Of a stretch of DNA of 64,000 nucleotides, positions 1,880 to 29,361 are shown one piece after another. A program made the translations under genes and the position numbers. How positions within the stretch are numbered: position 1 is the first letter of the stretch; each line of letters starts with the position of its first letter. The DNA lies in the NCBI GenBank assembly GCA_964016885.1, contig OZ024745.1, forward strand, positions 30,442,001 through 30,506,000, read 5' to 3'. The notes under the pieces were generated by a model. It saw only the letters and a program-made list of their open reading frames with translations. It ran no database searches and was not told the origin of the DNA. The stretch is from Eledone cirrhosa. Its lineage: Eukaryota.

Positions 1880-1927
1880 CTTTTTCCTTCATCATCTTTT
1901 CTTTTATTGCAGCCACAGCTATGACTT
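1880..1927 (-). CDS. Micro-exon m15 (48 nt): (E)[15 protein letters not shown]
   Basis: TTTTAACATCAG acceptor, AG|GTATG donor. The gene should continue past the left edge of the window. Confidence 0.78.
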
Positions 1928-2625
1928 CTGATGTTAAAAAAATTAACACAATGTCTTACATATCATTTGAAACAACATAATATTGACATTATATATTTCT
2001 ACTACATTCTACCTGCTTTTTGAATCTTATCAGTCTTTTATTACATATCTCACATTAAATATACTACTACTATATATATATGAGTATATACATTGTATAT
2101 ATGGATTGAAAAAGTAGCAGGAGAAATGAAATATTTGGAATGAATGAACAAAGAATGAAGTTTCCTCTTCAGCCACACATGGGCAATGCAATTTCATGCC
2201 AAAAGTGTTATTTCATAATATTGAGCCCAGATTGCATAACAGCTTAGAGCAAGCCACTGGAAAGATGTATATGAGACAATACAGCATAGAAACAGAGGAC
2301 AACTTATACATATATCCTCTGTTATGTGGTAGTGCTGGTGCCACGAAAAATGGCATCTAGTCAATCATATGAAGTGTGAGTGCCAGTGTTATGACAAAAA
2401 ACACTCAGTCCATCCTGTAAGATCAAACTGTCAGAGTCATGATAAAATGATACTGGTATACATCGTTAGCTAGTTGATAGTAGGGAGGGCATCCAGCTTT
2501 AAAAACAATGTCAGGATGGAATGTATGAGCAAATGACAGGCATCTGATCTGCCTAACCAGCCTCAGAAGGTGACAAGAAGTCTAACCCCTGCAAGCATAG
2601 AAAATATACATAAAATGATAATGGT

Positions 2626-2793
2626 AATAATTGTTTCTATGTTTGGCACAAGGCCAGCAATTATCCAGTCCATTACTGGTACTTTATTTTCTTGACCCCG
2701 TAAGGATGGAAGGCAAAGTTAACCTCGGCAGGATTTGAACTCAGAATGGCAAAGCATGGCGTCCGACCCTCTATCAATACTGCCAATCCACCG
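2626..2793 (-). mobile_element. tRNA-derived SINE, absent from duplicate copy B
   Basis: Reverse complement of GGTGGATTGGCAGTATTGATAGAG...GAGTTCAAATCC...GCCTTGTGCCAAACATAGAAACAATTATT. A-box and B-box-like motifs present. Confidence 0.8.
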
Positions 2794-2840
2794 GATGAAG
2801 ATATATATATATAAATATGTATACATTATATTCAACATAC

Positions 2841-2891
2841 CGTTTTCAAATGTCAGCATTCCTTCTTTTTTCACAGTAGCAATCAGGTTTT
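2841..2891 (-). CDS. Micro-exon m14 (51 nt): (E)NLIATVKKEGMLTFEN
   Basis: TTTAACATTAG acceptor, G|GTATGTTGAATATAAT donor, open frame. Confidence 0.78.
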
Positions 2892-3350
2892 CTAATGTTA
2901 AAGAAAAGAATTAACAAAATGTCTTACATTTCATTAGAAACAACATATTACATTGACTTTCCCCTCCTCATATTATATATATATATATATTATATATATA
3001 TATATATATATATATATATATATGTATATAGTACCATAACTCCCGGTAGAGTTGTAAAGATGTTATAGTGACACAGCATTTCTGGGGCATTTGTTTAAAC
3101 CTGGTAGAGCCCATCCCTTCTCTAGATCTGAATATAGCATATTCTTCAAGACAAGGAAAGAAAGCATGAGAGAAAAGAAGTGAAAAAGAGTTATAGAGGA
3201 AAGATCATCTCCCTTGGCAAGATGAAAAGAAAAGTTAACTTCAGCAGGATTTGAACTCAGATCTCATTTGAGTTGGAAGAAGAAATCATGCTAACCTATT
3301 GAATGTTCTAACAACTACCAATTTGTGGCTTATATTATATATGTATATAT

Positions 3351-5120
3351 CATCATCATCATCACCATTTTATGTCCGTTCTTCCACGTTAGGATGGGTT
3401 AGACGGGTTGTCCTGTTGAGGGCAATGTCCAGTCGGCTGACCTTGCCTTGCTCATACGGGAACTGATTCTGGCTTGATTTCTACAGTTGGATGCCCTTCC
3501 TAACACCAACCTCATTTACAGTGAGTGCTGGGTGCTTTTTTTCCATAGCGCCTACACGTCCACCTTACAGTGTGGGCTGGGTGCTTTTTTGCCATGGCAC
3601 CTCCACGACCATTTTGCAGTGGGAGAGTGTGGAGGCATATTGACTATATGCTTCAGCTCGTACCCGTGGGGCGGTCGGGTCTTCTGTATTACTGCGTGAC
3701 GCCAGAGGTCACAGTCTTGTGTCATCGCCTTTGAGAGGTGTAATTGGGTAAGGTCGGCTTTTAACACTCCATCCCAGGTCTTCTTGAGTCTCCTCACTTC
3801 GCGGTTTCCATCGACTTCTAGTGCTCTGCACCTTTTTATGCAGCTGTCATCCTTCATACGCATCACATATTCATACCAACACAACCGCCTCTCCTGCACA
3901 CAGCATTTGATTCCTCTTATGCTCAGTCTCTCTCTCAATTCATTTATGCTTTGTCGTTCGCGTATATTACTATTACACATCCATCGGAGCATGCAGGCTT
4001 CGTTTCTCTCTAATCTATGTAAGACTTCCACCTTCAGCGCCCAGGTCTCACTACCATGTAACATTGCTGTTCGGATACCCGCATCATACAGTCTGCCTTT
4101 CATTTTGAGGGAGAAGCCTTTTGCAGCTAGCAGTGGTAGCAGTTCCCTGAACTTCTTCCATCCCATTCTTACCCTAGTTATTGTAATTTCTGAACACCCA
4201 CCTCCGCTGCTAATTCGGTCATCTAGGTAGTAGAAGCTGTCTACTGTCTCTACAGAGCCCTCCCAGAGATTGGTGGTACTTGTTTCCTGTGGCTGTTTGT
4301 TGCTTGCTGTCCCAGTACAGCTGCTGCATGTGAAGCCTACATTCTTAATTAAGCTTCCTGAGATCCCGCTACATCTCTTGTGCACCCATTGTTTGCATTT
4401 GGGGCAGAGAATGGAGTTCTTACCTACAGCTTTCCTACATACTGAGCAAGGCCATTTCCCTGAGGGGATCTGGGTTCTGTTTTCTCATCTACTTACAAGT
4501 ATCTTAGTCTTTGTCATGTTGACTTTGAGACCCTTTCTATCTAGTCCCTGCTTCCAAGTGTGGAATTTATTCTCTCGTTCTACCATAGATTCAGCTATAA
4601 GTGGAGGTCATCAGCATACAGGAGTTCCCATGGGCATCCAGTCTTAAACTCCTCCGTTATTGCCTGCAGGACTATGATGAACAGGAGAGGGTTAAGAACA
4701 GAGCCCTGGTGGACCCCAACCTGTACGCTAAATTCCTCGCTATACTCATTGCTAATCCTAACTTTGCTGACTGCTTCCCTATACATGACTTGTACAGCTT
4801 TCACAAGCCATTCATCTACTCCTAGTTTTCTAAGAGCCCACCAGATTACTGCACGTGGAACTCTGTCAAAGGCTTTCTCGAGATCGACGAATGACAGGTA
4901 GAATGACTTACTTTTAGCTAGGTACTTTTCCTGTAACTGCCTCACAAGTCACACTCCTCCTGCCTGTGGTCTTACTCCAGCCCCAGATCTCATCTGTCGC
5001 CTTTAGTAAGTTATTTTTTAGGAACTCCCAGTGCTCTTCTACATTGAATGTCTCTATCTGTTCTTTACTGTCATGGGTGTTAAGTAAAATATCTTTAAAT
5101 CTGTTACTGGCTGAGGGGTC
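3351..5120 (-). mobile_element. RTE-clade LINE, 5'-truncated and frameshifted (RT region plus 3' tail)
   Basis: RT motifs SFVDLEKAFDRVPR, GVHQGSVLNPLLF and LLYADDL. Cys-rich insert WPCSVC..CPKC..WVHKRC, MLHGSETW and an RTE C-terminus. (CAT)n tail at 3351; internal deletion near 4945. Confidence 0.9.
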
Positions 5121-27022: not shown

Positions 27023-27080
27023 ATGTATATATATATATATATACACACACACACAAATATATAAATTATATTAAACATAC

Positions 27081-27131
27081 CATCTTCAGGTGCCAGTTTT
27101 ACATGTTTTCTCGAAGCAGCAAGTAGCATAA
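27081..27131 (-). CDS. Micro-exon m4 (51 nt): (V)MLLAASRKHVKLAPED
   Basis: TTTTAATTTTAG acceptor, G|GTATG donor. Differs from m13 by 1 nt. Confidence 0.78.
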
Positions 27132-27705
27132 CTAAAATTAAAACAACAAAATGGCTTAAATATCATTTGACACAACATATTACATTGACTTTAGCCCCTC
27201 ATTTTATTATGTATATTTATAGATCAGAGATTTGCCTTTCATCTTTACGGGGTTGATAAAATAAAGTTCCATTGATACACTGGGGTTAATTTAATCGGCA
27301 TTCTATTCCCCAAAATTTATTTGGTCTTGTGTCTAAATCTGAAACCATTATGTATGGACCCATAACTCCTGATAGAGTCATAGAGACACTAAAGTAAGTT
27401 ACAGAGTTTCTTGGGCATTTTGTTTAGATCTGGTGGAGCCCAACCCCTCTCCAGGTCTGAATAAATTTAATTTCTTCCAGAGAAAGGAAAGAGTGATAGA
27501 GAGGAAGTGAGAAAGAGATATTAAGAAAATCAACACTAGTATTAGACTAATACTGTTTTTATCAACTGCGAACGGGTGAATGGCAGAGTAGACCCTGGTA
27601 GGATTTGAACTTAGACCTTATAGAACCAGAAGAATTCCTGCAAACTATTCTATCCAACATTCTAGCAACTCTGCCAATTTGCTGCCTATGTTACGTTTAT
27701 TATTG

Positions 27706-27893
27706 TGGTGGATTGGCAGTATCGGTAGAGGATCGGACGCCATGCTTACCAGCATAGTTACGTCCCTTTACGATCTGAGTTCAAATCCAGCCGAGGTTGA
27801 CTTTGCCTTTCATCCTTACGGGGTCGATAAAATAAAGTACCAGTAATGCACTGGGTAATTGCTGGCCTTGTGCCTAAAGTAGAAACAATTATT
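27706..27893 (+). mobile_element. tRNA-derived SINE, absent from copy A
   Basis: Full-length copy inserted at TTATT. The empty site is visible at about 6148-6156. Confidence 0.88.
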
Positions 27894-29310
27894 AAAAATG
27901 AAAATCTTTAAATACATTTTTAAATCTGTGTTTCTAAATTTTTATTTTTTGCCAATATTCTATGATTTGTGTGAAAGTTTACCCCACTACAGTGAAGTGC
28001 TTCCTGGACATCATTTCCTGCCCACCTTACCCTACTATCATACCTTACAGTACCAACTTGGTGGGTGGTTTTTTTACACCCCCTTCCTCCCTGTGTACTC
28101 TCCACCACTATAGTATATGAAATTTTAATGGAAACATTATTTAGGGTACAAAAGACTTAGTGAAGGGTTGTGGCTACTACTGACTCAGGTATAGGGGATG
28201 ACTACATACATTTGTGTGACAAATGAACAACAAAATATAAAACATGTAAGAGCTTGACATACATGTAAATCCCCAGAGAATCAACAAACAGTTGGGTGGC
28301 CCTCCTACCCTTAAAACCCAAGAAAAGAAAATGACAGCCTTGCAGCTTTCTTCCAATCAAGCACGGGACCTAAGATGTGCCACATTGAATGTTGGAACAA
28401 TGAGGTAAGTGTAGAGGGATTGTGGAAATGTTAGAGAAGTGAAAAGTAGATTTGTGCTGTGTGCAAGAAGTGGAGGGGAAGTTCAACCAGATTCATTACA
28501 GGCAAGGAACACAGGTTCAAATTCTTCTGGATGGGTGGCAAAAGCAGGGTGGGTATAGTAGAAATACTCCTTGTTTAGAGATGGGTAGACTAGGTAATTG
28601 AGGTAGTTTGGGAGAGTGATAGAATAATTAAACTTAGACTAGCCCTGGACAATACTACAGCCACTATACTATCTACCAATGCCCTACAAGCTGGACATGC
28701 CAATGAACAAAATGATCATTTCTATGAGGCCCTCGTACAAACTACCTCAATGACAGAGGACTATGATTTTATGATTGTAGCTGGAAACTTCAATTGACAT
28801 GTTGAGAAATACCAGGATGTATTTCTTGTCATACACAGAGGCTATGGATATGGCACAAGAAAAGAGGAAGGAACTAAGCTTCTGGAGTTTTGCAATGTCT
28901 TCACTTAATGATCTGTAACACAAACTTCAAGAAACCAACCAATCACCTGATTACCTACCAATCAAGGGGACATAGAAGTCAAATAGACTTCATCCTCACC
29001 AGGAGAGGAGACAAACATTTGCTTGTAAATACCAAGTCTTTTCCTGGGGAGGAATGTACCCTTCAACATAGATTGTCTTGGAAGGAGGTGCAGTGCAGCT
29101 GCCAGGAATGTGTGTGTGTGTAGGGTGTGTGTGAAGTAGTAAAGTTGAGAATAACTATTAGGGAGTGCTAGTGGAAGGGGGTGGGGGGGGTCAGGTCACA
29201 TTGTAAGCTACAGTCTCTCTTTCTCTCTCTCTCTCTCTCTCTCTCTATATATATATATATATATATATATATATACACACACACAAATATATAAATTATA
29301 TTAAACATAC

Positions 29311-29361
29311 CTTCTTTTTCTGTCATTACTCCTTTCTTTTTCACAGCAGCAATTAGTTTTT
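29311..29361 (-). CDS. Micro-exon m3 (51 nt): (K/E)KLIAAVKKKGVMTEKE
   Basis: TAG acceptor, G|GTATG donor, open frame. Positional paralog of m12. Confidence 0.78.

Follow-up and report, generated by a model that had tools for sequence, protein, structure and literature searches.

The window analyzed here, a stretch of 64,000 nucleotides from the octopod Eledone cirrhosa (contig OZ024745.1, hereafter C5; C5:30442001-30506000), carries 15 minus-strand micro-exons. They form a small part of a tandem exon array that appears to make up the middle of a single giant gene, and whose copies differ in amino acid sequence more than their introns would lead one to expect.

The Window Lies within an Array of 167 Micro-Exons

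The exons of the window are numbered from right to left, starting with m1, which ends at position 36243 (Table 1). All 15 are present with an AG acceptor and a GT donor, measure 48 or 51 nt, and share one common open frame. When the genome was searched with the window itself, the 40 scored matches (of 162 candidates) all fell inside one 420-kb stretch, and a profile search of the 864 kb around the window yielded 173 matches, 167 of which are complete exons bounded by AG and GT. The six that we excluded are a copy of the intron alone, a piece of intron, a 3' fragment, a class-B exon that is truncated and has no donor, and two weak matches beyond the array end. The array spans 475 kb (C5:30518794 to 30043645), with introns of 693-30,557 nt, and its exons measure 51 nt (111 exons), 48 nt (43 exons), or 45 nt (13 exons), each of them symmetric with phase 1-1. 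None of the 167 exons bears a stop in the common frame, while 146 and 115 do so in the remaining two frames, and no junction codon is a stop; for the 162 exons that fall into classes, 5.7 stops would be expected in the common frame at the intron rate (P = 0.003).

Five leading exons are followed by exactly 18 units of nine exons, one from each of the classes H-I-A-B-C-D-E-F-G, and no unit is short of an exon. The unit period is 17.6-32.1 kb, and 148 distinct sequences are found among the 162 classed exons. A block of about 75 nt on the acceptor side of the introns is 85% alike between classes, compared with 69% for the exons themselves, and is possibly a splicing element.

Table 1. Features of the window; positions are counted from its first letter.
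Feature	Position	Strand	Description
m1	36193..36243	-	51 nt, phase 1-1; leading exon, 4th in array; AG/GT ends; open solely in the common frame
m2	31805..31855	-	51 nt; leading exon, 5th in array
m3	29311..29361	-	Class H; opens nine-exon unit 1
m4	27081..27131	-	Class I, unit 1
m5	21317..21367	-	Class A, unit 1; contigs of run X5 on it
m6	20520..20567	-	Class B, 48 nt, unit 1; contigs of runs X5 and X4 on it
m7	17061..17111	-	Class C, unit 1
m8	15807..15854	-	Class D, 48 nt, unit 1
m9	12841..12888	-	Class E, 48 nt, unit 1
m10	11266..11316	-	Class F, unit 1; same sequence as the F exons of units 6 and 12
m11	9514..9564	-	Class G; closes unit 1
m12	8077..8127	-	Class H; opens unit 2
m13	5533..5583	-	Class I, unit 2
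m14	2841..2891	-	Class A, unit 2
m15	1880..1927	-	Class B, 48 nt, unit 2; array extends about 400 kb further left of the window
Acceptor-side intron block, example (about 75 nt)	29362..29436	-	Common to all nine classes
Complete higher-order unit H-I-A-B-C-D-E-F-G	9514..29361	-	About 149 codons; 1 of 18 in the genome
Class-I upstream intron copy without exon	36458..36942	-	91% to 27153-27639; duplication remnant; no exon found
Bulk of 30.6-kb intron between array exons 3 and 4	36244..64000	-	Contains TA-rich array and 200-N assembly gap

The Array Probably Belongs to a Giant Octopod Gene

The array is followed by a single-copy phase-1 exon of 1,220 nt that matches the Octopus bimaculoides protein XP_014775115.1 (E = 4e-52); among 1.84 billion representative sequences, this protein and GAB1604762.1 of Argonauta hians were its only two matches. 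The cluster of XP_014775115.1 includes A0A0L8H5Y7, an uncharacterized O. bimaculoides protein of 1,681 residues that is collinear with the locus on the same strand: residues 37-781 match upstream of the array (30.74-30.70 Mb) and residues 1119-1680 downstream of it (30.03-30.02 Mb). The flanking matches to these relatives show 33-73% identity on both sides, those tested are single-copy except for a local 3' duplication, and the nearest flanking exons that we inspected join the array in phase. Taken together, array and flanks would constitute one octopod gene with a length of about 720 kb and some 5,000 codons, and A0A0L8H5Y7/XP_014775115.1 and GAB1604762.1 are likely its orthologs. Where E. 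cirrhosa has the array, however, the O. bimaculoides and Argonauta models have about 340 residues of low-complexity Glu/Lys sequence.

Amino Acid-Changing Sites Diverge Faster Than Introns

All rate tests were performed with our own scripts on the 162 classed exons; the five leading exons were excluded. Diversity among copies amounts to 0.119 in the exons, and intron zones beyond the first 20-30 nt next to an exon show 0.063-0.076. Same-class intron diversity lies at 0.053-0.076 in all six zones, the donor zone excepted, and across these zones no peak of divergence was found beside the exons. In each of the 153 unit pairs, which are not mutually independent, the exons have diverged further than the introns.

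This excess is concentrated at sites that change the protein. Zero-fold degenerate sites have a diversity of 0.132, 1.9 times the 0.068 expected from base-matched intron, while four-fold sites reach 0.072 against 0.057 (1.3 times; 24 alleles vs. 19.0). With the base-specific intron spectrum as reference, we counted 213 non-synonymous alleles against 93.6 expected and 49 synonymous alleles against 30.1; among clean alleles the figures are 175 vs. 94.7 and 37 vs. 31.3, and the synonymous excess sits mostly in codons that are changed elsewhere too. Changes private to one copy give the same picture on their own (121 non-synonymous vs. 62.1 expected; 23 clean synonymous vs. 19.7).

The tree-free pairwise ratio of non-synonymous to synonymous rates (dN/dS) is 1.57 (bootstrap range 1.22-2.07). 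A codon model with one ratio, run in nine settings (flank, exon, and joint trees, each with three frequency sets), returned 1.49-2.00 in every one of them, with P values from 0.004 to 2e-8, and the estimate exceeds 1 in each of the nine classes (1.17-2.96). At greater depth, the consensus sequences of the six 51-nt classes differ at a proportion of 0.376 of non-synonymous and 0.177 of synonymous sites (pN and pS), while deep intron differs between classes at 482 of 2291 positions (0.21; hand sum over 15 alignments of at least 76 nt).

The question arose from an initial annotation of the window, which had proposed diversifying selection on the basis of a hand count in four duplicated exon pairs. 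Our recount agrees with its numbers: m14/m5 differ at 9 of 51 nt, m12/m3 at 8 of 51, m15/m6 at 3 of 48, and m13/m4 at 1 of 51, in sum 21 of 201 nt with three synonymous changes and no stops or frameshifts, and the 88 nt upstream of m14/m5 contain two differences. Since synonymous sites make up 22-28% of all sites in these A-rich codons, three synonymous changes among 21 are at chance level (P = 0.12-0.28). That exons diverge faster than introns holds for the comparison with bulk intron (10.4% in the exons, P = 0.008-0.015), but the 88-nt flank was an unusually conserved control; the near flanks of the four pairs differ at 7 of 349 positions (2.0%) versus 326 of 5529 (5.9%) in bulk duplicated intron. 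The strongest pair, m14/m5, is inflated by a patchwork history, because m5 lies only 3 nt from the class-A exon of unit 6, five units off, but 9 nt from m14. The annotation had also staked its proposal on the ratio staying above 1 when more copies were included, which it did with 162 copies; the effect is moderate, however, and falls short of the many-fold excess that the hand numbers implied.

Simulation, Conversion, and Import

Neutral simulations with conversion were run under star-like and equilibrium histories with two tract lengths each (415 runs). The observed ratio of non-synonymous exon to intron divergence, 2.10, was reached in none of them (the highest value was 1.58), and a dN/dS of 1.57 was reached in nine. 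Applying the intron filter to the exons left their diversity at 0.119, and the excess persisted when homopolymer sites were removed.

Conversion, which the initial annotation had named as an alternative, has in part occurred. Identical exons are found in distant units (class F in units 1, 6, and 12; class D in units 5, 8, and 11), and conversion among same-class copies is real. Import from other exon classes, on the other hand, explains little. The idea that the excess was copied in from exons of other classes, or that it reflects an exon-specific mutation process such as copy-back of edited RNA, is largely refuted: 9-mers carrying variant alleles are seen in other classes more often than at random sites (51 of 269 vs. 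34), yet 13-mers (9 of 269 vs. 8.5) and 15-mers (5 of 269 vs. 3.7) are near expectation, all 12 substitution types are raised with A>G (2.4 times) unexceptional, and four-fold sites stay near the intron rate.

Intron divergence from unit to unit is nearly even (4.4-8.1%), and singletons account for 60% of intron, 64% of synonymous, and 56% of non-synonymous alleles, the same star-like spectrum in each case. The evenness and the roughly 60% of private alleles suggest that the blocks were duplicated in a burst and that the copies then diverged for the most part independently. In the history that we envisage, one 51-nt phase-1 exon would have been duplicated into nine classes, the nine-exon block would then have been multiplied into 18 units of nearly equal age, and occasional conversion between same-class copies would have followed. 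Residues differ by 23.5% between adjacent units and by 29.4% between units 12 apart; adjacency does not raise the difference, and this speaks against selection that only keeps neighbors unlike.

Probable Positive Selection and Its Alternatives

The exon excess, the dN/dS above 1, the failure of neutral simulations to reach the exon-over-intron ratio, and the small contribution of import together support moderate positive selection on the amino acids of the repeats. The reading that we favor, with a probability of about 0.6, is that the 15 segments lie within a 167-repeat array likely encoding the 2,770-residue middle of a giant, likely intracellular octopod protein, and that its amino acid-changing sites, at about twice the intron level, most likely owe their divergence to positive selection.

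A number of observations weigh against this reading. All comparisons are between paralogous copies within one assembly, without orthologs or populations, and a gap of 200 N lies inside the array between exons 3 and 4. Synonymous alleles are raised (50 vs. 31.3) when codons with multiple hits are counted, the observed ratio of synonymous to intron divergence was reached in 6 of the 415 neutral runs, and in one of the four simulation settings 4 of 70 runs attained the dN/dS of 1.57. Only three of the nine classes (H, C, and G) pass the one-ratio test alone, and the 30-34% of codons that a site model places at 3.3-3.6 are figures that conversion could inflate. In the unfiltered 75 nt upstream, divergence equals or exceeds that of the exon in classes H, E, and F. 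Radical and conservative changes are raised nearly alike (2.0 and 2.6 times), and non-synonymous alleles show no overdispersion among codons (P = 0.23), which together would be odd for a folded binding surface. A search of the O. bimaculoides and Argonauta relatives with the repeat profile gave no match, and no family, structure, or tissue could be assigned to the gene.

One alternative, which we consider unlikely, turns the argument around: conversion would have homogenized introns and synonymous sites, while tracts erasing a copy's own amino acids were removed, so that selection preserved differences instead of creating them. Such a model has been argued for the exon clusters of SmPoMuc (PMC2576457), and likewise for spider-silk repeats. 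The identical exons in distant units, nearest neighbors that shift from class to class, and synonymous sites mildly raised to 1.33 times the intron level (1.0-1.7) would all suit it. However, the like spectra and the even divergence of the units place the introns away from conversion equilibrium, amino acid changes private to single copies are doubled on their own, conversions that took in entire exons were tolerated, and no divergence peak was found beside the exons.

About as improbable is a second alternative, which accepts selection but proposes another way of assembling the protein: the exons would form a pool for mutually exclusive or combinatorial splicing, like that of schistosome micro-exon genes or Dscam, and selection would diversify choices rather than the links of one chain. 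Any subset of these symmetric phase 1-1 exons would keep the frame, the acceptor-side block is conserved across classes, the O. bimaculoides models cross the array position without such repeats, and tandem exon duplication has been tied to mutually exclusive choice (PMC9013439). Against such a pool stand the 18 of 18 units that retain nine exons in order with no whole exon decayed, introns of at least 693 nt, which offer no steric exclusion, and a predicted helix that crosses the exon junction, with its cap motif at the 3' end in 107 of 167 exons.

Less probable still is that the repeats are neutral spacer, nearly unconstrained except for stops, with the excess arising from a low intron baseline, model error, or chance. 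The earlier hand numbers fit neutrality, about 60% of codons fit a dN/dS of 1 with few constrained, radical changes are freely accepted, and the unfiltered flanks match exon divergence in classes H, E, and F. The baseline is nevertheless alike in six intron zones, the excess survives both the filter and the removal of homopolymers and never arose in the neutral runs, and dN exceeds dS even without the intron as ruler.

The Predicted Protein

The virtual chain contains one cysteine in 2,753 residues, no N-glycosylation motif, and no hydrophobic 19-residue window; the array peaks at 1.35 and the O. bimaculoides relative at 0.89, and the start codon proper of the Eledone gene was not located. With these properties, and as internal repeats of a giant protein, the exons lend no support to the comparison with immune, gamete-recognition, or venom peptides that the initial annotation had drawn. 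For a protein of apparently intracellular, not secreted, character, selection of this kind is unexpected.

A strong period of 8.3/16.6 residues runs through the chain, and by the charge-hydropathy boundary it belongs on the folded side. Ser or Thr stands four residues before the exon end in 107 of 167 exons, and Gly precedes this position by three or four residues in 100 exons. By the usual rules of helix capping, these motif counts suggest short amphipathic helices that cross the exon junction. Each repeat of 16-17 residues would then comprise one such helix, capped by Thr/Ser and broken at Gly, and the repeats together could form a long intracellular rod or solenoid whose surface differs from repeat to repeat. 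The exons would be spliced mostly in order into one chain, which we regard as probable for most of them since every unit retains all nine. New amino acids would have been fixed again and again at roughly 30% of positions, the way a binding surface caught up in sexual or some other conflict would change; a role in testis or sperm is a guess to which we give slightly less than even odds.

Searches for relatives returned little. Pfam gave only a weak match to HEAT_2 (E = 0.094) and the PDB a single match (E = 0.25); no longer relatives of the downstream exon were found among 7978 scored, and no relative of P0003 residues 20-320 among 1841 word-sharing candidates, so that these homolog searches establish no link to vertebrate WDR87/97. 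No WD40 repeat was detected in P0003 or in 295 of 489 candidate minus-strand frames up to 165 kb upstream, although short diverged WD40 exons could escape. Look-alikes in the Atlas all score below 0.9 (an FSIP2 fragment at 0.78, HEAT-type families at 0.84-0.89) and are leads only. The automatic name 'CCDC173-like' of A0A0L8H5Y7/XP_014775115.1 is unsupported; a family search of P0001 gave one sub-threshold, unrelated Pfam match instead of CCDC173/CFAP210. A likeness between the exon motif and P0003 seen by eye found no support in a profile search. WH2, plectin-repeat, and CARD-like readings of the exon motif are conjectural resemblances. The layout may be likened to that of WDR87/WDR97, in which a long repetitive tail rich in Glu and Lys comes after a region resembling helical repeats. 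WDR87 is a sperm-tail protein (PMC11462348).

Comparison with Known Systems

In its layout the array resembles the micro-exon genes (MEGs) of schistosomes and SmPoMuc, and in its growth it resembles nebulin and titin; it differs from the MEGs in the secretion trait and shows no homology to the muscle proteins. The schistosome MEGs and SmVAL6 share with it many tiny symmetric exons and a high dN/dS (PMC4350168). As in MEGs, the coding region consists mostly of micro-exons, since about 2,770 of the predicted 5,000 codons lie in the 167 exons of 45-51 nt. MEGs of the schistosome type are secreted with a signal peptide, however, and no hydrophobic segment was found in the array or in the O. bimaculoides relative. 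SmPoMuc likewise consists of tandem units of micro-exon and intron with microsatellites, in which introns are more alike than exons (PMC2576457). Its 27-nt exons fall into three types under purifying selection and its product is secreted and glycosylated (PMC2576457), while the array is made of mostly unique copies (148 of 162) with dN/dS above 1 and no N-glycosylation motif. The array also resembles Dscam-type clusters in that homologous exons, all in the same phase, stand in tandem between constant ones.

Nebulin, titin, and obscurin are built of exon super-repeats whose repeats are conserved, whereas those of the array diversify. The likeness to nebulin and titin, giant intracellular proteins that grow by duplication of multi-exon blocks into super-repeats (PMC9013439), is one of growth. 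Flanking exons and ortholog gave no Pfam or PDB match to nebulin, immunoglobulin, or fibronectin type III repeats, and 16-residue exons are too short to scan singly. Divergence of neighboring repeats can avoid misfolding (PMC4660218), an effect not seen at the unit level in the array. PMC8830517 serves as background only.

Annotation would overlook or collapse a 720-kb gene with 167 intact micro-exons in an exact 18 x 9 order, and the array is absent from the O. bimaculoides model. Our literature search, which covered the accessions and the titles and opening abstract lines of the papers listed, found no description of such a gene, though supplements to cephalopod genomes might include it. The array offers a well-replicated case, with 162 copies that carry their own intron rulers, two time depths, and tandem exons that escape homogenization through amino acid change. 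It makes testable whether coleoid micro-exon arrays act as generators of diversity and what conflict acts on them. A bolder and rather unlikely view would hold that this octopod repeatedly multiplies a micro-exon with its intron into arrays of more than 100 copies, that positive selection individualizes the copies, and that combinatorial splicing yields a very large intracellular repertoire of binding surfaces, this gene being one of several unrelated ones in the genome.

Possible Transcript Leads

Run X5, of unrecorded kind, has contigs on m6 and m5 whose letters come from the copies of more than one unit. One contig of organism B (1,850 nt) spans m6 and both flanks with 14 other letters and 10 gaps, and a related exon is present in the organism of run X4. 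These contigs are leads only, for expression and for a second species. No exon-to-exon joint was found in 12,500-32,400 in four runs among the best 15 of about 8,190 joints, where repeats swamp the signal, and no m5-to-m6 joint on 20,490-21,440 among the best 15 of 20. Beside m5/m6, the conserved intron bins have deep cover in X1 and X2 and none in X5. Such a pattern is what spliced RNA could leave, but the kind of run X5 is unrecorded and missing cover is no evidence.

Further Observations at the Locus

Within the window, a TA-rich array of 10 kb occupies 47401-57339, with the N run near 55,929; the gap could hide further exons. A 369-nt inverted repeat (57765-58133 and 60944-61312, 97% complementary, 2.8 kb apart) possibly marks the ends of a DNA transposon. 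At 10,180-10,900 on the plus strand, a stretch resembling an exon proved to be a dispersed repeat inside the F-G intron and was rejected.

Upstream, a short-period satellite whose long frames contain no stop takes up about 20 kb (C5:30542000-30562000; L064-L066) between the array and the constant exons. One of these, a 3-kb exon (L081:5010-8128; C5:30711010-30714128, minus strand), contains a near-perfect tandem repeat of 20 residues with 27 motif hits. Unlike the micro-exon array, this repeat is homogenized (four non-synonymous and four synonymous variants). Some 70 kb upstream, an intronless frame of 522 codons for UTP-glucose-1-phosphate uridylyltransferase (L091:4528-6093, minus strand) may be a retrogene.

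Downstream, a basic 48-nt phase-1 candidate exon with the donor motif of the array (L059:6361-6408, minus strand) stands just ahead of the large downstream exon and may be related to the founding exon. Within the intron that precedes the large exon sits an inserted element (C5:30028600-30032900; L059-L060) whose motifs suggest a likeness to long-terminal-repeat retrotransposons. The last two exons of the gene lie within a tandem duplication of about 16 kb (C5:29987168-30023951; L055-L059; 98.6-99.5% identity), which is either recent or an assembly artefact. Left of the gene end, further plus-strand exons at C5:29975555-29981114 and 29898096-29911744 presumably belong to a RhoGAP gene and to a repeated adenylate-kinase-like gene.

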